From positions 1,664,001-1,728,000 of the forward strand of contig CAVVXN010000005.1 of the NCBI GenBank assembly GCA_963752285.1: a DNA stretch of 64,000 nucleotides, written 5' to 3'. Positions 7,115-44,969 of this stretch are shown piece by piece. This DNA comes from an uncultured Planctomycetota bacterium. GTDB lineage: Bacteria; Planctomycetota; PLA2; JAEUHO01. The notes under the pieces were generated by a model. The model had not been told where the DNA came from. It saw only the letters and a list, made by a program, of their open reading frames with translations, and did no database searches. Position numbers and translations under genes: made by a program. The first letter of the stretch is position 1. Each line of letters starts with the position of its first letter.

Positions 7115-7329
7115 ACCCCGCTCGCGCGAACGTCTCCGGTCGTCTCGACCGGCCTGACCCCGCTTGACCGCCGCGCCCCCGTCGGCGCGGGTCGGTTCTG
7201 GTCGTCTGCTCTTCGACAAGGGGGAGCAGACGACCTCGTTCCAGGTGGCGCCGGCCGCGCACGCCCTCTGACGCGACCTGCCTGCGCCCGATTCCGGGCC
7301 CCGTGCGCGCATGGCGCCGGGAGGACCAC

Positions 7330-7791
7330 GTGAGCGGCGAACGCCCCGGGACGCCGGACGAGAGTCGGGAGCGCCTCGTCGCCCGACTCGGAGACGAGGA
7401 CCCCGGCCAGCGGACCGCCGCCGCGAAGGCGCTCGGCCGACTCGGGCCCACGGCGCGCGAATTCGCGCCGGAGCTCCTACCGGTCCTCGGGGACGAGGAC
7501 CCGATGGTTCGGGCGATGGCCGCCGCGGCGCTCGGGAAGATCGGCGCCGACGAGGACCGGGTCGTGCAGGCGCTCGGCCTCCTCCTCGACGACGCGGTGG
7601 TGCCGGTTCGCTTCTGGGCGGCCGACGCGCTCGGACGGCTCGGTGCCTCGGCGGGCCCGCTCCTGGCACGACTCGACCGGCTGGCGGCGAGCGGTCCGCC
7701 TCCGGTCTCGAACGCGGCCCGACTCGCCGCCAGCCGCATTCGATCGGCAAGGGCGGGCGAGGATCAGGGGTCGGACGCGATCGGGCGGTAG
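7330..7791 (+). CDS. HEAT-repeat protein
   Basis: Three repeats of the type LGDEDPxVRxxAAxALGxLG; GGAGG SD before GTG. Confidence 0.8.
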   Translation: MSGERPGTPDESRERLVARLGDEDPGQRTAAAKALGRLGPTAREFAPELLPVLGDEDPMVRAMAAAALGKIGADEDRVVQALGLLLDDAVVPVRFWAADALGRLGASAGPLLARLDRLAASGPPPVSNAARLAASRIRSARAGEDQGSDAIGR

Positions 7792-7802
7792 AATCCCGCG
7801 CG

Positions 7803-8030
7803 ATGCCGAGTCCGCATTCCCTCCGCCGCCTCGCCAACCTCTCGAAGAAGGTCCACGACGACCTCCGGCGCGGCGGGATGGCGATGACGTTCAAGTACCT
7901 CTTCCGCTCCACCGCGATCTTGGCCCGGGTGACGGCGATCCTCGCCGACTACGTGGCGACCGAGGCGGGCGCCCCCGCCCAGGAAGGCGAAGAGCCGCCC
8001 GGGAAGCGGGGCCTTCGCACCGGCCGCTAG
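7803..8030 (+). CDS. Small hypothetical protein (75 aa)
   Basis: ATG just after the HEAT gene; normal amino-acid composition (MPSPHSLRRLANLSKKVHDDLRRGG...) and GC3-biased codons. Confidence 0.6.
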   Translation: MPSPHSLRRLANLSKKVHDDLRRGGMAMTFKYLFRSTAILARVTAILADYVATEAGAPAQEGEEPPGKRGLRTGR

Positions 8031-8053
8031 CCCGCCGGGCCCGCCCCCCTCGA

Positions 8054-9208
8054 TCAGCGCGCGGCGCGCCGCGGCGGTGCGGTCGGGGGCGCGGCGCCTT
8101 CGCGGGCTTCGGCGGAGAGGAGCTCCAACGCGCGCCTGTTCGCGCGGGGGAACGCGTAGCCGTCCAGGTCCGAGAGGCGGACGAAACGCGGCGACTCGCA
8201 CGCGAGCGGGCGCGGACGACCGCGGGCGCACGAGCAGTGGAAGAGGTGGAGCGTGATCTTCATGTGCGTGTAGGCGTGGTCGATCGCCACGAACCGGCGA
8301 CCGACCGCGACCTCGAGACCGGTCTCCTCGCGGACCTCGCGCGCGCAGGCCTCCTCGAGCGTCTCCCCCCGCTCCCGCTTCCCGCCGGGGAACTCCCAGA
8401 GCCCGCCGAGGAGACCTTCGCGGGGCCGGCGCGCGACGAGGAGCCGGTCGCCCCGCCACACGAGACCCGCCGCGATGTCGTGGTGCGGGACCGGCTTCCT
8501 CGCGGGCCTGTGGGGCAGCGCGGCTGCCCGGCCGCGAGCTCGGGCGCGGCACACGTCCGCGAGGGGACACACGTCGCAGCGCGGCGCCCTCGGCACGCAG
8601 ACCGTTGCGCCGAGGTCCATCACGGCCTGGTTCCAGTCGCCCGGCCGGGACGCGGGGAGGAAGGCATCCGCCGCGCGGCGCACGCGTTCTCTCGCCGCGG
8701 ATCGGGTCACGTCGCCGCCCTCGTCGAGGAGTCGCGCCACGACGCGGACCACGTTCCCGTCCACGACGGCCGCCGGGCACCCGAACGCGATGCTCGCCAC
8801 CGCGGCGGCCGTGTACGGCCCGAAACCCGGAAGGGCCACGAGGGCCTCGACCTCGCGCGGGAGGGTCGCCCCGTACCGCGCCACGAGCACCCGGGCCGCG
8901 CGGTAGAGGGACCGCGCCCTCGCGTAGTAGCCGAGCCCCTCCCACGCCTTCAGGACCTGGTCCTCGCGGGCGCCCGCGAGGGACCGGACGTCGGGGAACT
9001 GCGCGAGGAACCGCGGCCAGCGGTCGAGGACCGTGGCCACGCGCGTCTGCTGGAGCATGGTCTCCGAGACCCAGATCTCGTAGGGGTCCCGGGTGCGGCG
9101 CCACGGGAGGTCCCGCGCCGCGCGGTCGTAGTGGGCGAGGAGACGGCGACGGACGCGCCGCACGAAGGACGCGTCCGGGCCCGACGACCCGGTGTCGCGG
9201 GCCCGCAC
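8054..9208 (-). CDS. mutY: A/G-specific adenine glycosylase MutY with C-terminal NUDIX domain (start uncertain; 9265 possible)
   Basis: RDLPWR, IWVSETMLQQT, WEGLGYYARAR, HhH LPGFGPYTA, VDGNVVRV, Fe-S motif CVPRAPRCDVCPLADVC. Confidence 0.95.
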   Translation of the reverse strand: MRARDTGSSGPDASFVRRVRRRLLAHYDRAARDLPWRRTRDPYEIWVSETMLQQTRVATVLDRWPRFLAQFPDVRSLAGAREDQVLKAWEGLGYYARARSLYRAARVLVARYGATLPREVEALVALPGFGPYTAAAVASIAFGCPAAVVDGNVVRVVARLLDEGGDVTRSAARERVRRAADAFLPASRPGDWNQAVMDLGATVCVPRAPRCDVCPLADVCRARARGRAAALPHRPARKPVPHHDIAAGLVWRGDRLLVARRPREGLLGGLWEFPGGKRERGETLEEACAREVREETGLEVAVGRRFVAIDHAYTHMKITLHLFHCSCARGRPRPLACESPRFVRLSDLDGYAFPRANRRALELLSAEAREGAAPPTAPPRRAAR

Positions 9209-9263
9209 GCGGGAAGGGCCGTCTCGGCGTCCGCCTCTGGCGGACGCCCGGGAACGATCGGTC

Positions 9264-9297
9264 ACGGGTCGCGCCGACGGCGCGACTAGGGAGCCGC
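9264..9297 (-). promoter_or_regulatory. Candidate bacterial SECIS element directly 3' of an in-frame UGA
   Basis: mRNA after UGA reads GCGG-CUCCCUA-GUCGCGCC-GUC-GGCGCGAC-CCGU: 8-bp upper stem after an 11-nt spacer, loop starting GU, possible lower stem GCGG/CCGU. Confidence 0.6.
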
Positions 9298-9819
9298 TCA
9301 GGTCCCGCCGACGCAGGGCTCGGGCGCGGCTCTCGGCGCGCCCGCCCCGGCGAAGAGGCCCTTCATCGACCCGCGCGACGCCGCGGGGCGCGGCGTGGCG
9401 ACGGCCTCGCGCGGCGGCATGACCGGCGCGGCGACGGCGGGCTGAACCCGCGCGGTGCGGCTGACCGGCACCACCGGCGTCGGCCCGGCCAGGTCGCGGC
9501 GTACCAGCGGGACCGCGCGATGCCCGCGCATCAGCTCCATCGAGGGCGGCGCCGGCGTCGGGGGCCGCGCGGTGGTCGTCGCGACCACGCGCGGCTCGAT
9601 CACGACCGGCCGCGCCACGGGTCCGGCATGCACCGGTCCGGAGATCACGGGGCTCGGGCTCACGGGCCTCGAGCTCACGGTGCGGCGGATCACGCGCGGC
9701 GGCGGCAGCGCGGCCCGGGAGGCCACGCTCGTCCGACGCTGCGACAGCCCGCCCGAGGCACAGCCGCCGAGGACCACGACGGCCCCCAGCGCGAACGCCA
9801 CGGTTCTCGGCATCCTCAT
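9286..9819 (-). CDS. Pro/Arg-rich lipoprotein, paralog 1; putative selenoprotein ending EPCVGGT-U-AAP (TGA 9298-9300 recoded, TAG stop 9286-9288)
   Basis: GGAGG SD; lipobox-like VLGG-C; TGA aligns with the Cys of both paralogs; ATG at 9813 is an alternative start. Confidence 0.7.
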
Positions 9820-10104
9820 CCTCCCCCTCCGGGGGTCCGGCCGGGGCGACGACCGTCGCCCCTCGGCGTCGGTCGAGCGGGCCTCCTGCCTCCCTCGGAA
9901 TCGGCTCGCACGGGCATGGAATCCACCGCGGGTCACCGGCAGTTCACGAGACGGGGGTCCCATTCGTCCCGGTTCGCTCCTCTGAACGCCCTCTTCACGA
10001 TCTCGAGGGCCAGGGTGTACGGCCTCGTCGGCCGCTCCTTCGACGCGCCGAGACAGCGCGGTCCTCCCTCGGGAGCCCCGGTTTTGGGCGTCCGTCCGCA
10101 CCGG

Positions 10105-10665
10105 TCAGGGGACCAGACACCGGCCGCCGGCACACGGGTCGGCCGCACAGGGGGAAGGCGCGGCCACCGGGGACGCCCGCGGCGACTCGAAGAGGCCGCG
10201 CAACTCCGAGAGCGAGCTCGTCCTCGCCGCGCCGAGCGACCTCGGGGCCCGGGGCGCGGGAGCGGCCCGAGCCGGAAGCGGCGAGGCGACGGAGAGCCGG
10301 AGCGGCGCGGGACGGCTGACGGGGACGACCGGCGTCGGGCTCGAGAGGGCCCGCCGCGCGATGGACGACGTGCCCGGTCTCGCGAGGATCTCCATCGACG
10401 CGGGCCGCGGCGGCCCCGGCGCGCGGACCACCGCCGGCTCGGGCGCTGCCAGGCGCCTTGTCTCGACGACGCGCGGCGCGACGAAGGCCGGCGTGACGGT
10501 CCGGGCCGCGGCGACGGAACGGACCGGGAGGCGATAGGACGCGCTCCGCACGACCGGAGGCGGGAGGGACGCGCGTGAACGCGGCACCCGGACGGGGGCG
10601 CCGGGGGCCGCGCAGGCACCCAGGAGCAAGAGCCCCCCCATCCCGAACGCCAGGATCTTCGACAT
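10105..10665 (-). CDS. Pro/Arg-rich lipoprotein, paralog 2, ending PCAADPCAGGRCLVP
   Basis: GGAGG SD; lipobox LLGA-C; shares RAxLPPP, SME, PTPVVPVSR and GLF blocks with paralog 1. Confidence 0.75.
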   Translation of the reverse strand: MSKILAFGMGGLLLLGACAAPGAPVRVPRSRASLPPPVVRSASYRLPVRSVAAARTVTPAFVAPRVVETRRLAAPEPAVVRAPGPPRPASMEILARPGTSSIARRALSSPTPVVPVSRPAPLRLSVASPLPARAAPAPRAPRSLGAARTSSLSELRGLFESPRASPVAAPSPCAADPCAGGRCLVP

Positions 10666-11323
10666 CGTCGTCCTCCCTGTCGCGACGAGGGACGAGGGGG
10701 TCACGCGCGCCGGCCGGCGCCGGCGGACCCTCTCGTCTTGCCTCCCGTGGACCCGGGACTCCACGCGCTCGCGGAGCCCGCATCGCGGAGGGATCGCTCG
10801 TTCGGGCCCGGACCAAGGACCACGAAGACCGTCTCACCGGCGTCGGGCGCGGCCCCTCGGGGGTGCCGCGTCGGCGCGCCCCCACGGGCGACCAACCGCC
10901 CGCCCGTACGGGCGACCGGTCGATGGGCGCGCGCGAGTCGCGCGCCCGCCGTACGACGACGCATCGGTGTTCGGATGGCCCTGCTTCCCAACGAGCCCGG
11001 GAGGACGAGCACGCCTCGCCCACCACGAATCCCTACCCTGTCGGGCGACCACTCTAGCGGGTCCCTGGGCGCCCCCCAAGAGAGGATTCCTCGCCGCGCG
11101 TTCGGGCCCCCGTCGGACGTGCAGGGCGCGCCGATGGCTCTCCAGGCCCTGAAAACAGGGCGGGAAGGCGCCGGACCGAGCGGGCAAGGGAAAGGGGCCG
11201 CGGGATCTAAGTCCCATGGCGCCCACAGACCCGGGGCTCTCTACGGGGCCCGGAACGGGCCACGACGGGCGTACGAGCTGCCGGCCGGGCGGGGGCGAGC
11301 GGGGCTCGGGTCGAAACGGGCCC

Positions 11324-11698
11324 TCAGGGGACCCGGCAACGGCCGCCGGCGCAGGGGTCGCAGCCGTCGTCGGCCGTCTTCGGGCACGGGCGGAACAGGG
11401 TCCCGAGGCTCCCCGAGTGGACGGTCGCCGAGCGGCGGGCGGCCTGGGCCTCGGACGCGTCGGCCCCCGCACGCACGGCACGACGCGACACGAGCGTCGC
11501 GGCGGACGCCGGCTGCGCCTTCGACGCCGCGGTCGCCGCCACGTGCACGACGGCCGTGGTCGTGGTCGGCCGGGCGTCGCTCACGCGCGGCGCCTCGGGG
11601 CTGGTCACACCGGCGAGCACGCGCTCCCTCGCCAGCGGTCGCGACGCACACGCGGCGAAGAGAAGCGCGACGAGGGGAAGGAACATCGAGGTCTTCAT
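11324..11698 (-). CDS. Ala/Arg-rich lipoprotein, paralog 3, ending CPKTADDGCDPCAGGRCRVP
   Basis: GGAGG SD; lipobox LFAA-C; same C-terminal motif and xxLF block as its neighbours. Confidence 0.75.
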   Translation of the reverse strand: MKTSMFLPLVALLFAACASRPLARERVLAGVTSPEAPRVSDARPTTTTAVVHVAATAASKAQPASAATLVSRRAVRAGADASEAQAARRSATVHSGSLGTLFRPCPKTADDGCDPCAGGRCRVP

Positions 11699-11926
11699 CG
11701 TCTCCTCCGGTCCCGGGGGGCCTCCACCCGGGGCGAGCGCGGGCATGCGCACCCGCTCTTCCGTATTCATGGCCCGCGAAAGCGCGTGTGGCATGGCTTT
11801 CGTGGGCGTCCTGAATGCAGAGGGAACGTGTAAGGAGAAACCTCTTCACGCGCCCCGAGCGCGGTCTTCATGGACCCTGGTACCGTCTCCGCGGACCCGG
11901 CGGTCGGGACCAGCGCGAGGAACGAG

Positions 11927-13393
11927 ATGCCCCGTAGGAACAGGCCGGGACCGGGTGGCGATGCCGCGGCGTCGCGCGCGTCGCGCCCCGTGGCCGGAGC
12001 GGCGCTGCTGGGGCTCCTCGCCGCGTTCCTCGGCGCGTCGGGGCTCGAGGCGGGCGAGTCGGACGGCGTCCGGTGGGAGCCGGACCTCGAGGCGGGGCTG
12101 CTCCGCGCCGCGAAGGAGGGCCGCCCCGTCCTCCTCGCCGTGAACGCGATCGAGACGGAGGCCGCCAACCAGCGTCTGGCGGGCGAGATCTACCCGTCGG
12201 CGGCGTGGGGCGACGCCACGCGCGACTGGGTCGCGTTCGTCGGGAACCCGAACGCGCACGGCGGCGCGGCGTGCTCGCGATACGGCGGCATCCCGTGCGC
12301 GACGCACCAGGCGGTGCTCCGCTACGTCGTGCGGCGCTTCGCGCCCGGCGGCGACCTGATCAGCCCGCAGCACCTCGTCCTCGACCCCGACGGGCGCCTC
12401 GCGTTCCGCAAGGAGTACTTCACGGGCGTGGTGGGCCCGGACTTCTTCGACCGGTGGCTCGCACGGCTCTGCCCCACCATCACGCTCGACCGGGCGGCGC
12501 GCCGGCGCCCCGACACGATCGACGCCCTCGGCGCCGCGCCCGTGGAGAAGGTGACGGACACGGCGCGGGCGTGGCTACGGAGCGGCGACCCTCTCGCGCC
12601 CGCCGGCGTGCTCGACGCGATGGACTACGCCATGGAGGAGCCGCGACGGGTCGCGCTCGCCCTGTCGTTCGACGCGACGCCGAAGGAGCTCCTCGCCGTG
12701 CCGTGGACGGCGGCGTACGACGCCGCCGTCGCGCCCGACGACGCGCCCGAACGGACGCTCGCGTTCGTGACCGCGTTCCTGCTCGCCGATCCGGGCACGG
12801 GCGCCGACCTCGCGGCGCGCGCCGCCGTGCTCACCCGGGACGCCTCCCTGTCGAGCCGGGTCCTCGCCGCGTGGGTCGGCGGGCCGGTACCGGCCTCCGG
12901 CGTCGTGCCGGGCCTGGACGACCGGGCGGCGGCCCGCCTCGCGGAAGTCCTGGCGCTCCTCGGTCGGCCGGACGGCGGGCGGGCGCCGGAGAGGCTCCCG
13001 CCGCCTCTCGCCGCGCGCCTCCAGCGCGCCCGGGAGAAGGCGGGGCGCGCCGCGACGCCCGCGCCGCCGCTCGCGCAGGTCCTCGCCGCGGACCCCGCGC
13101 CGGGCGCGCTCCGCCGGGCGGTCCTCGCCGCCGCGCCGGACGCGGTCCTCGCGTCCGAGGCCGAGGTCCGCGCGCTCCTCGACCGTCCGGAGGAGCGCGT
13201 GCGCGTGGCCGCCGCGCTCGCGCTCCTCTCGACACGGCGCCGGCTCGACGCCGCGGCCGAGGCCGTGCTCCTCGCCGCGGTCTTCGACCCCGTCGAGGGG
13301 CCCGACACGCGCGAGCTCGCCGCGCTGCGTCTCGGGACCGACCCGGGCCGCGACGAGGAGACATGGCGACGCGCGTTCGAGGCCCGCAGGTGA
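11927..13393 (+). CDS. Exported protein with N-terminal thioredoxin-like domain (no CXXC) and helical-repeat C-terminus
   Basis: Signal-like hydrophobic stretch; VRWEPDLEAGLLRAAKEGRPVLL and PQHLVLDPDG typical of thioredoxin-fold N-terminus and cis-Pro strand; HEAT-like LLDRPEERVRVAAALAL. Confidence 0.65.
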   Translation: MPRRNRPGPGGDAAASRASRPVAGAALLGLLAAFLGASGLEAGESDGVRWEPDLEAGLLRAAKEGRPVLLAVNAIETEAANQRLAGEIYPSAAWGDATRDWVAFVGNPNAHGGAACSRYGGIPCATHQAVLRYVVRRFAPGGDLISPQHLVLDPDGRLAFRKEYFTGVVGPDFFDRWLARLCPTITLDRAARRRPDTIDALGAAPVEKVTDTARAWLRSGDPLAPAGVLDAMDYAMEEPRRVALALSFDATPKELLAVPWTAAYDAAVAPDDAPERTLAFVTAFLLADPGTGADLAARAAVLTRDASLSSRVLAAWVGGPVPASGVVPGLDDRAAARLAEVLALLGRPDGGRAPERLPPPLAARLQRAREKAGRAATPAPPLAQVLAADPAPGALRRAVLAAAPDAVLASEAEVRALLDRPEERVRVAAALALLSTRRRLDAAAEAVLLAAVFDPVEGPDTRELAALRLGTDPGRDEETWRRAFEARR

Positions 13394-43034: not shown

Positions 43035-44969
43035 TCAGGACGACGCGCGGATCTGGCGCCGGTCCCCGGATCGGCGCGTGAAGCCCGATCGGTCGAACGC
43101 CTCGAGCAGCGGGATCACCCACTTCCGGGTCGAGCCGAGCAGCGTGCGCGCGTCGGACGGCGTGAACCCGCCCCGTTCCCGGGCGAGGCGGGCGAGGCGC
43201 TCCTTGGCCGACTCGACCCACGCCCCGTCGAACCACAGGTCGCCCGCCTGGAAGGCCTCGCCCCGCGTCTTGAGGATCTTGAGCGCCCGGAGCACGCGCG
43301 GGCGCGAGAGCCCGAGGTCGGCCTCCAGGTCCTCCACGAGGGGCGGCTGGGCGCCGCCGCGCCGGAGCGCGGCCCGGAGCTGGTCCACCTCGCGCTGGTC
43401 CTCCGGCGACAAGGACGCCTCGTGCGACGCGAGGCGCAGCGCGTCCTTCCCCTCGCGCACGAGCCGGCCCCGGGCGACGAGGTCGTCGAGCGCGGCGTCG
43501 AGGACCGCCGGAGAGACCCGGCCGGCCGCGGTCCTGACCAGGGAGACCGGGAGGTGCCGGAGGGCCTCGTCCTTCGCGTGGAGCTTCGCCGCGCCCGCTT
43601 CCAGGCGCCGCCGCACCTCGTCGAACGCGGAGCGGAGGATCCACAGGTCCCGCGCGTGACCGAGCCGGAGCGCCTCGTCCGCGAGGACCATCGCCTCGAC
43701 GGCCGCCTCGAGGGCCCGCGGGAGGAGCCCCGTGGCGCGCGCGATCTCGGCCGGACGCGCGCCCGCCTCGCCCGCGCGCCGGAGCTCGGTCATGAGGAGC
43801 GCGCGCGGGTCGTCGAGGTGCTCCGACTGCTCGAGGAACGCCGCGACGAGGCCCGTACGCCGACGGGGAAGGCGGGCGGGCAGCACCGCGACCACGACGC
43901 CGCCCCCGAGCGTCGCCGAGGCGTTCTCCGCGCGCACGACGAAGCGGTCGCCGGGCAGCGCCACGACGTCCTCGAACGTCTCGAGCTCGCCGATCGTCGT
44001 GCCCCCGGGCTCGAGCGCACGCGCCTCGAGGAGGTGGAGGCGAGCCTCCCACTGCCCGGCGCCCACGTGGAAACGGACGCGGGACCGGGCCTCGAGCGGG
44101 CCCTGCTCGGCGAGGAGGCGCAGACGCACCGCGAACCGCCGGGCGGGCAGGACGGCGCCGGCCTGGCAGACGACCATCCCGCGCCGGATCTTCCCGGCCG
44201 CGACGTCGGAGAGGGCCAGCGCCGTGCGGCGGTGCGGCCGCGCCTCGACCGCACCGCGCTTGTGGACCTCGATCCCGCGCACGCGCCCGGTCCAGCCCGG
44301 GGGCAGGATCTCGACCCCGTCGCCCTCGCGGACCCGCCCCGCGAGCGGGATCCCGGTCACGACCGCGCCCCGGCCCTCCGCGACGAACGCGCGCAGGATC
44401 GGCATGCGGAACGCACGAAGATCGTCGGCCTCGGTGTCCCGGGCCGGAGGGAGCGCGTCCGCGATGGACCGCCGCAGGAGGTCGAGGCCCTCGCCCGTCG
44501 CGCTCGAGACCCTCACCATCGGCGCGGCGGGGATGCCCGTCCGCTGGAGGAGGTCCCGGGTCTCCTCCTCCACGATCTCGATCGTCTCCTCGTCCGCGAG
44601 GTCGATCTTCGTGATCGCGACGACGACGCGCGTGACGCCGAGCAGGTCCAGGATCTGGACGTGCTCGCGCGTCTGCGGCATCGGGCCGTCGTCGGCCGCG
44701 ACGACGAGCAGGACCAGGTCCACGGCGGTCGCGGCGGCCACCATCGTGCGGACGAGCCGCTCGTGGCCGGGCACGTCGAGGAGGCCGACCTCGGTCCCGT
44801 CGTCGAGCGCGAACGCCGCGTACCCGACGTCGATCGTCATCCCCCGTTCGCGCTCCTCCTTCAGGCGGTCCGTGCGCTCGCCGGTCAGGCGCTCGACGAG
44901 GGAGCTCTTGCCGTGGTCGATGTGACCCGCGGTGCCGAGGATGACGCGACGGACGGCGGTGGCGGTCAT
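43035..44969 (-). CDS. selB: Selenocysteine-specific translation elongation factor
   Basis: GTAGHIDHGKSSLV..LTG..TDRLKEE.ERGMTID, DVPGHER, TKID; C-terminal winged helix STRKWVIPLLEAFD...TRR.GD.R. Confidence 0.96.
   Translation of the reverse strand: MTATAVRRVILGTAGHIDHGKSSLVERLTGERTDRLKEERERGMTIDVGYAAFALDDGTEVGLLDVPGHERLVRTMVAAATAVDLVLLVVAADDGPMPQTREHVQILDLLGVTRVVVAITKIDLADEETIEIVEEETRDLLQRTGIPAAPMVRVSSATGEGLDLLRRSIADALPPARDTEADDLRAFRMPILRAFVAEGRGAVVTGIPLAGRVREGDGVEILPPGWTGRVRGIEVHKRGAVEARPHRRTALALSDVAAGKIRRGMVVCQAGAVLPARRFAVRLRLLAEQGPLEARSRVRFHVGAGQWEARLHLLEARALEPGGTTIGELETFEDVVALPGDRFVVRAENASATLGGGVVVAVLPARLPRRRTGLVAAFLEQSEHLDDPRALLMTELRRAGEAGARPAEIARATGLLPRALEAAVEAMVLADEALRLGHARDLWILRSAFDEVRRRLEAGAAKLHAKDEALRHLPVSLVRTAAGRVSPAVLDAALDDLVARGRLVREGKDALRLASHEASLSPEDQREVDQLRAALRRGGAQPPLVEDLEADLGLSRPRVLRALKILKTRGEAFQAGDLWFDGAWVESAKERLARLARERGGFTPSDARTLLGSTRKWVIPLLEAFDRSGFTRRSGDRRQIRASS

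Follow-up and report, generated by a model that had tools for sequence, protein, structure and literature searches.

A tandem array of predicted planctomycetal lipoproteins with a C-x-G-G-x-(C/U) module and a probable selenocysteine codon

Is the in-frame TGA near the end of a predicted planctomycetal lipoprotein gene a stop or a selenocysteine (Sec) codon, and what would a protein with such a tail do in the cell envelope? The question is raised by a stretch of 64,000 nucleotides, referred to here as the window, from an uncultured Planctomycetota bacterium (assembly GCA_963752285.1, contig CAVVXN010000005.1, positions 1,664,001 to 1,728,000 of the forward strand). Three co-oriented genes, g1 to g3, occupy the span 9286..11698 on its minus strand, from the TAG stop of g1 (9286) to the ATG of g3 (11698). 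A first-pass annotation had described them as lipoprotein genes of about 177, 186 and 124 codons, each with a Shine-Dalgarno site, a lipobox, a low-complexity linker, a short conserved block and a cysteine tail, and all of these features are present. We conclude that g1 is very probably a selenoprotein gene, with Sec presumably inserted at the UGA.

9286..9819 (-): g1, predicted Sec-type lipoprotein gene; translated with TGA as U it ends ...EPCVGGT-U-AAP, followed by TAG at 9286-9288
9298..9300 (-): in-frame TGA of g1, read as Sec; same alignment column as the second Cys of CAGGRC in g2 and g3
10105..10665 (-): g2, Cys-type paralog of 186 aa, ending SPCAADPCAGGRCLVP, then TGA
11324..11698 (-): g3, Cys-type paralog of 124 aa, ending RPCPKTADDGCDPCAGGRCRVP, then TGA

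The three genes share one plan. With the recoded TGA included, g1 comprises 177 codons, or 175 if translation starts at the second ATG (9813). A GGAGG Shine-Dalgarno site lies 0-6 nt 5' of the ATG in each gene, and each signal peptide is closed by a lipobox (VLGGC in g1, LLGAC in g2, LFAAC in g3). Lipoproteins were called from a signal peptide with a lipobox of the form [LVI][ASTVIG][GAS]C together with Lgt and LspA in the genome; lgt (198 bits) and lspA (88 bits) both score above cut-off, and the three products are predicted to be lipidated on these grounds. Their mature parts of 158, 169 and 108 residues consist to 70-79% of Pro, Ala, Arg, Val, Ser and Thr, with one to three aromatic residues and only 2, 4 and 5 Cys, respectively. 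In a three-protein alignment the two paralogs are 44% and 39% identical to g1. All three have in common an LPPP motif, a PTPVVPVSR..A block, a ..GLF block and a P-C-x-G-G-x-C-x-x-P end, where SMKGLF, ELRGLF and SLGTLF as well as PCVGGT-U-AAP, PCAGGRCLVP and PCAGGRCRVP align column for column. The additional Cys that had been reported upstream of the tail in g2 and g3 were found again, one in g2 and two in g3. The resulting spacings are C-x4-U in g1, C-x4-C-x4-C in g2 and C-x2-C-x4-C plus one further upstream Cys in g3, and a CC doublet occurs in none of them.

We considered whether such frames might be GC-rich noise, as local GC around the array is 72-78%. This reading was rejected in view of the Shine-Dalgarno sites, the lipoboxes, conservation across genera and the GC content at third codon positions, which is 0.90-0.93 versus 0.68-0.72 at second positions, the usual coding signature of a high-GC genome. 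A six-frame search with the tail pattern over the whole 4.64 Mb genome gave 13 matches, and only those in g1 to g3 stand in the family context. An AlphaFold2 model built on a shallow alignment of 12 rows reached a mean predicted local distance difference test (pLDDT) of 57.5 and a predicted template modelling score (pTM) of 0.15. Its secondary structure comprises a signal helix and a five-residue turn at the MKGLF block, and nothing more. The disorder that had been anticipated for the linker is thus supported, and low pLDDT and composition agree in suggesting that the mature parts form a disordered tether. The genes are real paralogs, predicted to encode lipid-anchored, intrinsically disordered envelope proteins. 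The gap of 658 bp between g3 and g2 (10666-11323) yielded no convincing open reading frame and no Rfam match.

In g1 the TGA is followed by GCG GCT CCC TAG, which reads Ala-Ala-Pro-stop, and its alignment column holds Cys in g2 and g3 as well as in the homologs P0007, P0008 and P0014. The genome (five contigs, 89% complete) encodes tRNA-Sec, selA, selB and selD, all scoring above curated cut-offs. More specifically, tRNA-Sec reaches 70 bits (cut-off 47) and carries the anticodon tca according to ARAGORN; selD adjoins selA and itself contains an in-frame TGA; and across the order selA was found in 38 of 40 genomes. The Sec-specific elongation factor is encoded inside the window, away from the lipoprotein genes:

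43047..44945 (-): selB, TIGR00475, 317.4 bits versus a cut-off of 242.25; C5:1707047-1708945

A HMMER search with a three-gene profile against 1.84 billion representative proteins returned 12 proteins at E <= 0.001. Five of them are full-length Cys forms ending DPCAGGRC-x-VP (g2, g3, P0007, P0008 and P0014). The other seven, P0005 (which is g1), P0006, P0009, P0010, P0011, P0012 and P0013, are recorded as ending at C-x-G-G-(T/G). P0005, the gene-caller product of g1, stops at ...CVGGT. These short records would fit an ordinary stop, in which case g1 would encode a tail-less variant ending ...CVGGT and the hairpin behind it would serve as terminator or attenuator or belong to a repeat element.

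The DNA of the relatives points in the other direction. A TGA stands at the module position in all six Sec-type genes for which DNA was available: g1, its four orthologs in genomes G001, G011 and G009 and at metagenome locus L028, and a gene of genome G018, which belongs to a different, CKPxC-rich subfamily. The orthologs end ECAGGT-U-MPPQ-TAG (G001), NCPGGT-U-TPP-TAG (G011), PCAGGT-U-SPW-TAG (G009) and NCPGGT-U-VPP-TAA (L028, to which L029 is identical), and the G018 protein ends ...CNPFCIGGG-U-GI-TAG. As an ordinary stop, the TGA would have to recur at the Cys position of the sole invariant module in six genes and two subfamilies. It would also have to be followed each time, within two to four codons, by a second stop other than TGA, whereas TAA or TAG lies within the next four codons in only 111 of 14,991 (0.74%) TGA-ended frames of at least 100 codons in this genome. 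Furthermore, the codons past the UGA (AAP, MPPQ, TPP, SPW, VPP and GI) retain elements of the module, with a Pro in five of the six genes (at +3 in four and at +2 in SPW, compare ...C-x-V-P) and the G-I of CGIP in the sixth. This similarity argues against a plain stop, although a stretch of two to four codons is short and weak on its own. We read the G018 case as a probable independent switch between Cys and Sec. Two further syntenic lipoproteins, at L052 (G019) and L060 (G023), have other Cys-bearing ends (e.g. CEPNPCIGGDPCIHREPALPGC) and a TGA stop with an open frame beyond it.

Downstream of the true stop of g1, two hairpins were found:

9268..9286 (-): candidate Sec insertion sequence (SECIS) hairpin GUCGCGCC-GUC-GGCGCGAC in the 3' untranslated region (UTR); 8 bp, GUC loop beginning 19 nt past the UGA, dG -14.1 kcal/mol
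9226..9248 (-): second, longer GC-rich hairpin GGCGUCCGCC-AGAG-GCGGACGCC, a probable transcription terminator

Since the UGA is followed by no more than three sense codons, the first lies wholly within the 3' UTR. A small GC-rich hairpin stands 3' of the true stop, directly or within six bases, in all six Sec-type genes, while no SECIS-like hairpin was found after g2 or g3. The rules given for bacterial SECIS elements comprise a loop of 3-9 nt with a G in the first two loop positions, a stem of 4-16 bp, a distance of 16-37 nt from the UGA and a minimum free energy (MFE) of at most -7.5 (PMC13188914). All six hairpins lie within these limits, with spacings of 19-22 nt, stems of 6-10 bp, loops GUC, GUU or CGUG, and dG of -9.5 to -14.1. 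In a plain MAFFT alignment of the five orthologs 97% of cells pair and two of seven pairs covary. Once G018 is added and hairpin-centred segments are compared, 97.6% of cells pair and four of seven pairs show changes on both sides; the observed covariation score was reached in 0 of 500 shuffles, and slid controls collapse. Here the segments around the hairpin were chosen by us and realigned, as MAFFT had placed the G018 hairpin wrongly when given the entire 3' region. In G018 the stem (ACCGACC/GGUCGGU) departs from the others on both sides in three of seven pairs, and a GUU loop is kept. A second hairpin similar to the longer one at 9226..9248 follows the small hairpin in the orthologs, and this separate, more distal structure is the better terminator candidate. 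A scan of 8000-13000 against Rfam gave two matches, both at chance level and both on the terminator-like hairpin. At locus L048 (G014) a Cys-type gene ends ...CDPCAGGRCCVPPAAP-TAG, and the following bases GCCGCGCGCCGTCGG... repeat the 5' arm and loop of the window hairpin; the 3' arm is degenerate, and the structure may be a relic of a Sec-type ancestor.

Several observations weaken the case for a SECIS. GC-rich hairpins after TGA are common in this genome of 73% GC, so that a qualifying hairpin of at least 6 bp accompanies 5.8% of 58,960 genomic TGA triplets and one of at least 7 bp 2.5%. The hand-chosen segments around the hairpin favour pairing, the covariation set holds six sequences of which four are close orthologs, and in G001 and L028 the 60-nt stretch has an MFE fold other than the homologous hairpin. 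Since the hairpin criterion is common in the genome, the weight rests on conservation across the six genes. There the hairpin covaries and keeps its distance of 19-22 nt from the UGA, and we regard an ordinary stop as highly improbable.

An internal control is provided by two bona fide selenoprotein families of the same genome that have the same hairpin architecture. The first is a PrxQ-like peroxiredoxin with an in-frame TGA (TPG-U-T, confirmed by NCBIfam; C4:141218-141823, minus strand), the second a ResA/Prx-like protein (HW-U-PWC, confirmed by NCBIfam; C5:1051088-1051660, minus strand). Both are followed by a hairpin with a 7-bp stem and a G-first triloop, at 23 nt and 21 nt, respectively. 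Beside these, in-frame TGA codons with SECIS-like hairpins occur in three coding-looking frames at C5:65360 (+), C3:93900 (-) and C5:358694 (-), whose products are a PNV-U-GSC protein without a family match, a small membrane protein (IFFS-U-AVT) and a large exported protein (GFG-U-VGAG). All five genes lie outside the window.

Strong support for reading the g1 TGA as Cys/Sec, as proposed in the first-pass annotation, thus comes from the Sec machinery, the conserved UGA, the covarying SECIS-like hairpin and the conserved codons past the UGA. With high confidence, g1 and its orthologs would form an uncatalogued selenoprotein family with Cys-type paralogs and a SECIS in the 3' UTR. All 12 members were compared with Pfam and with NCBIfam release 20.0 (E up to 10 for NCBIfam) and gave no family match, so that membership in a characterised family, which would have spoken against a new system, was not found in these collections. 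Among the 119 selenoprotein families in Table 1 of PMC13188914 nothing is comparable. Literature retrieved with the motif strings consisted of papers on the third heavy-chain complementarity-determining region (CDR H3) of antibodies and of primer sequences, with nothing on bacteria, and nothing was found on Planctomycetes lipoprotein selenoproteins with SECIS; the main texts of the deep-Sep and BSepDB papers contain neither Planctomycetes nor lipoproteins.

To determine how far the family extends, a positional marker was used, namely the conserved gene that diverges from the array:

11870..13393 (+): divergent conserved neighbour encoding a 507-aa exported protein; 38 of 40 genomes of the order; alignment A7

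The region upstream of this gene was read in 29 relatives. A lipoprotein with at least one C-x-G-G-x-(C/U) module is present at 11 of 27 same-family loci and at neither of the two sister-family loci; several loci end at a contig edge, and a miss is therefore not proof of absence. Most of these lipoproteins are Cys-rich and carry the module as C(C)PGG(V/N)CG(I/V)P in one to three copies. Carriers include G002, with three copies, as well as G004, G005, G014, G022, G043 and G044. In the G005 protein about 19 Cys were counted manually in 125 aa, with Cys clusters and CKPxC runs right after the lipid anchor. P0024, from a public Planctomycetota metagenome-assembled genome, joins both forms, combining a window-type body (PPPRVISRR, PPSLQLLRAQRP, VQPAAAAP and ALF) with three CCPGGNC(G/A)IP modules. 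The sequence between the short motifs evolves fast at the syntenic loci. The g1 to g3 tail is thus a single copy of a more widespread module, C(C)PGGxCG(I/V)P, which is internal in relatives. The claim of a conserved C-terminal tail must be modified to this extent: the tail is conserved in relatives, and it is not strictly C-terminal, being repeated up to three times and placed internally. The DPCAGGRCxVP Cys tail, seen in the metagenomic P0007, P0008 and P0014, appears to be an older, separate subfamily.

Wider searches returned few additional members. The DNA pattern CPGGxCG[IVM]P, applied to a 401-genome sample of the phylum, matched 5 of 16 family genomes, and the reversed control pattern matched none. 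Two matches outside the family were judged to be chance, one (L081) a 31-codon frame without gene context and the other (L082) a Ser/Arg/Ala-rich translation. A hidden Markov model (HMM) of the window-type body found 4 of 40 genomes of the order at E <= 1e-4 and, with eight candidates scored per genome, none in the phylum sample besides G000 and G001, so that no match fell outside the genus. A locus search with a five-row alignment gave two genome loci and two identical metagenome loci. A word-indexed search with g2 (P0002) returned only itself among 7022 candidates, and this search is blind because g2 is of low complexity. In the ESM Atlas a Cys-rich relative led to unnamed Planctomycetota clusters at 0.87, which we take as a lead only. 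Relatives conserve the Cys-Cys or Cys-Sec pair of the tail, whose absence would have undermined a functional tail.

What might such a protein do? The earlier proposal was a stand-alone swinging arm that serves as a redox shuttle or as a soft-metal trap. Its first part fits the anatomy, as there is no folded domain, no Pfam or NCBIfam match and a low pLDDT, whereas the choice between electron shuttle and metal trap is decided by none of the computations. The explanation that we consider best as a whole, and to which we would give about an even chance, is that of Sec-tipped and Cys-tipped tethered exchange lipoproteins. Each protein would consist of a signal peptide with lipobox, a tether of about 100-150 Pro/Ala/Arg/Val-rich residues with a few short conserved motifs, and a terminal C-x-G-G-x-(C/U)-x-x-P. 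In g1 the UGA at 9300-9298 would be decoded as Sec, signalled by the small 3'-UTR hairpin. The Gly-Gly turn would fold the module into a hairpin and bring the first Cys beside the Cys or Sec, and the tip would alternate between a reduced state (dithiol or thiol/selenol) and a loop of six residues closed by a disulfide or selenenylsulfide. The attacking nucleophile would be the residue at the Cys/Sec position. The long tether could let the tip reach partners in the envelope for thiol-disulfide exchange, by which reducing equivalents would be passed on or reversible covalent links formed.

The module is the only invariant chemistry in the family. Sec occurs at the same second position in two subfamilies, and that residue is therefore probably the reactive one. 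Several published results bear on the proposal. In solved structures of antibody CDR H3 loops, a disulfide staples CxGGxC into a beta-hairpin (PMC6542541), and a CX4C redox centre is described for Plasmodium falciparum thioredoxin reductase (Cys535/Cys540; PMC8395237). The C-terminal tail of FrnE, which had been cited as a precedent, is borne out in print: its CX4C pair docks on a CXXC site (PMC8945050). According to a review, most selenoproteins combine Sec with a nearby Cys in a redox motif (PMC13188914). On this basis a tethered tip for thiol/selenol-disulfide exchange is the function we lean towards over metal binding, tentatively and at somewhat less than an even chance, with all of the chemistry inferred.

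This preference has to stand against three points. No reductant or partner was identified, the conserved neighbour being without CxxC and variable in its Cys pair. Tandem modules, CC doublets and Cys-rich relatives fit metal-thiolate binding or structural disulfides at least equally well. One Cys and one Sec, as in g1 and its G001 ortholog, suffice for a redox pair and equally for two-coordinate Hg(II) or Cu(I).

The last two points lead to a soft-metal or metalloid arm, in which the thiolates and selenolate of the module would act in the envelope as chelators of As(III), Hg(II), Cu(I), Cd(II) or comparable ions, for sequestration or for passage to a transporter, with Sec as a softer, always-deprotonated ligand. 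We rate this as possible but rather doubtful. The CCPGGxC of most relatives is a CC-x4-C, the spacing of the As(III) site of ArsD (Cys12/Cys13/Cys18; PMC12415280), and the module is present in up to three copies among CKPxC runs and Cys clusters that follow the lipid anchor. Predicted metal-binding selenoproteins with CU, UxxU and GxUC motifs are already listed (PMC13188914), among them the lipoprotein-like SaoC with its CC/CU C-terminus (10.1101/2022.07.06.499078). The sole other protein of the genome that ends in the module lies outside the window:

C1:568739-569551 (L075:3740-4552) (+): secreted protein with a CCPGGSC tail and no family match

Its gene is followed directly by those for an FtsX/MacB-type permease, an ATP-binding cassette (ABC) ATPase and an ACR3 arsenite pump. 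Among 40 genomes of the order, 22 have a homolog; none of these homologs uses TGA, and the Cys-rich C-terminal tail is kept at all 22 loci, as CC-x4-C at 17 of them. However, ACR3 adjoins this family in only three of the nine genomes that hold both (G000, G009 and G011). The array itself also agrees poorly with metal binding, since g1 to g3 are Cys-poor and lack the CC doublet, and no metal-resistance gene is conserved at the locus. A nearby resistance-nodulation-division (RND) pump scores as the multidrug type and was rejected as heavy-metal context in the window. Furthermore, no metal-sensing regulator was seen, and on our reading of the alignment the upstream element resembles one of an extracytoplasmic function (ECF) sigma factor, unlike a MerR or ArsR operator. 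The criterion for a metallothionein-like protein, a very high Cys content in CxC, CC and CxxC clusters, describes some relatives, e.g. the G005 protein, and not g1 to g3.

Static disulfides offer another account, by which Cys/Pro-rich lipoproteins would be cross-linked into an envelope layer or would tether the membrane to it. Planctomycete envelopes are reportedly cystine- and proline-rich, and in Chlamydia, of the same superphylum, the small Cys-rich lipoprotein OmcA belongs to a disulfide-cross-linked outer-membrane complex. The Pro-rich composition, the Cys clusters and the predicted lipid anchor would suit such a role, as would a locus fixed in 11 of 27 family genomes with fast sequence change between short motifs, and in antibodies the CxGGxC disulfide hairpin is structural (PMC6542541). 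Yet g1 to g3 have too few Cys for a network. Inserting Sec is expensive for a cell, and none of the 119 families tabulated in PMC13188914 offers a precedent for a purely structural Sec. That Sec arose or was kept at an identical module position in two subfamilies argues for reactivity instead, and a structural role appears improbable.

A more far-reaching reading can be formulated, which we consider unlikely. Here the selenoprotein would have no folded domain at all, being a lipid-anchored disordered tether whose sole functional part is the Sec-tipped C-x-G-G-x-U hairpin. Fast, reversible Se-S links with envelope partners might then allow it to bridge the wide planctomycetal periplasm as a tether switched by redox state; another possibility is a minimal selenol, reactive towards peroxides or disulfides, that patrols the surface of the membrane. 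C(C)PGGxCG(I/V)P would in that case be a new portable chalcogen-reactive unit that evolution has multiplied, trimmed and switched between Cys and Sec.

The arrangement of Cys and Sec forms side by side had been interpreted as cover for Se-poor and Se-rich conditions. This did not hold as a conserved design. Cys paralogs accompany the Sec gene only in this genome, and the four orthologous loci with DNA (G001, G009, G011 and L028) have the Sec form alone. A backup role that depends on Se supply is possible in this genome.

The surroundings of the array were examined for regulators and partners. One element and one downstream gene are added to the features:

9915..9947 (-): promoter-like element GTGAAC-N-TGAC...GGATTCCAT upstream of g1, from an alignment of 14 upstream regions
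8054..9265 (-): downstream neighbour, MutY-type adenine glycosylase with NUDIX domain (Pfam HhH-GPD, NUDIX_4, EndIII_4Fe-2S)

The promoter-like element, GTGAAC-N16/17-(C)GTCCAAT or GGATTCCAT, stands about 100 nt 5' of the translation start. Of 14 syntenic genes 12 have it, g1 among them, whereas g2 and g3 show no clear version; a degenerate copy was noted in the region upstream of g2. Its resemblance to the -35/-10 pair of an ECF sigma factor would suggest control by envelope stress. The divergent 507-aa protein has no Pfam or NCBIfam match. As read from its alignment, the N-terminal region looks thioredoxin-like, having ..NAL.E..AN.. in place of the CxxC as well as a conserved SPQH, and helical repeats appear to make up the C-terminal half. 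This protein was rejected as a redox partner on account of the missing CxxC and a Cys pair that is not invariant. The mutY gene also adjoins the lipoprotein gene in L022, L023 and L031. Within 7311-8030 (+), the C-terminal part of about 60 codons is a small open reading frame ending ...MPSPHSLRRLANLSKKVHDDLRRGGMAMTFKYLFRSTAILARVTAILADYVATEAG, and G001 retains it next to mutY (L022:13-315). No Pfam model matches it, and its product resembles a short tail-anchored membrane protein.

Nearly all known bacterial selenoproteins are folded redox enzymes or domain proteins. The family described here is on record only as short hypothetical proteins because gene callers cut at the UGA, which would flag a systematic annotation error in Planctomycetota genomes. 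If our reading is correct, it adds a selenoprotein family that is absent from NCBIfam and from the table of 119 families in a 2026 review (PMC13188914), and, next to SaoC-like tails, it would be a second clear example of an exported lipoprotein that carries Sec at its tip and has its SECIS in the 3' UTR. With C-x-G-G-x-(C/U) it would also define a short portable module, accessible as a synthetic peptide, whose redox potential and affinity for As, Hg and Cu are directly measurable. Finally, one locus would provide a natural set of Sec and Cys paralogs for asking what Sec buys in the cell envelope.

Among characterised systems, SaoC (the CD2366-family CysCys-COOH proteins, NF040734; 10.1101/2022.07.06.499078) comes closest. 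It is likewise small, exported, mostly a lipoprotein and without a known domain; a C-terminal Cys pair defines it, the last Cys is sometimes UGA/Sec, and it was 'dark matter' before its description. Because Sec sits at the C-terminal tip, its SECIS follows the coding end, as in the g1 family. However, NF040734 is matched by none of the 12 g1-family members. The SaoC pair is an adjacent CC or CU at the very C-terminus, whereas the g1 family has C-x4-(C/U) plus two to four residues and can have internal repeats. SaoC belongs to an ABC/organometallic locus of nine genes, found in anaerobic Firmicutes and others, and the g1 family stands beside mutY and an exported protein in Planctomycetota.

The UXX-star and KCU-star families (NF041114, NF041211 and NF033934; PMC13188914) share with g1 a Sec two to three residues from the C-terminus and a hairpin in the 3' UTR. 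Their HMMs match none of the 12 members. By their table names, UXX-star family 1 is Grx-like and KCU-star a DUF466 family (PMC13188914), in contrast to the predicted disordered, lipid-anchored tether of g1.

Redox arms of enzymes are a further point of reference, and Cys and Sec versions of these also both exist in nature. The arm of mammalian thioredoxin reductase (TrxR) reads Gly-Cys-Sec-Gly. Such arms resemble the g1 tail as flexible terminal chalcogen pairs, and the same spacing is found in P. falciparum TrxR (PMC8395237) and in Deinococcus radiodurans FrnE (239-CXXXXC-244; PMC8945050). They are, however, appendages of an enzyme that recharges them, while Pfam, NCBIfam and AlphaFold2 give no flavoprotein or DsbA-type catalytic domain for g1 to g3, which are predicted to be exported and lipid-anchored and for which no reductase partner was identified. 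With ArsD (Cys12-Cys13-x4-Cys18; PMC12415280), the Cys-rich relatives and the CCPGGSC protein share the CC-x4-C spacing. ArsD differs as a folded cytoplasmic protein that acts with ArsA; the CC doublet is lacking in g1 to g3, no ars genes lie at the locus, and NCBIfam detected no ArsD domain among the 12 members. As judged from its predicted architecture, the g1 family thus differs from its closest known counterparts in being a domain-less, lipid-anchored tether that carries a repeatable C-x4-(C/U) module.

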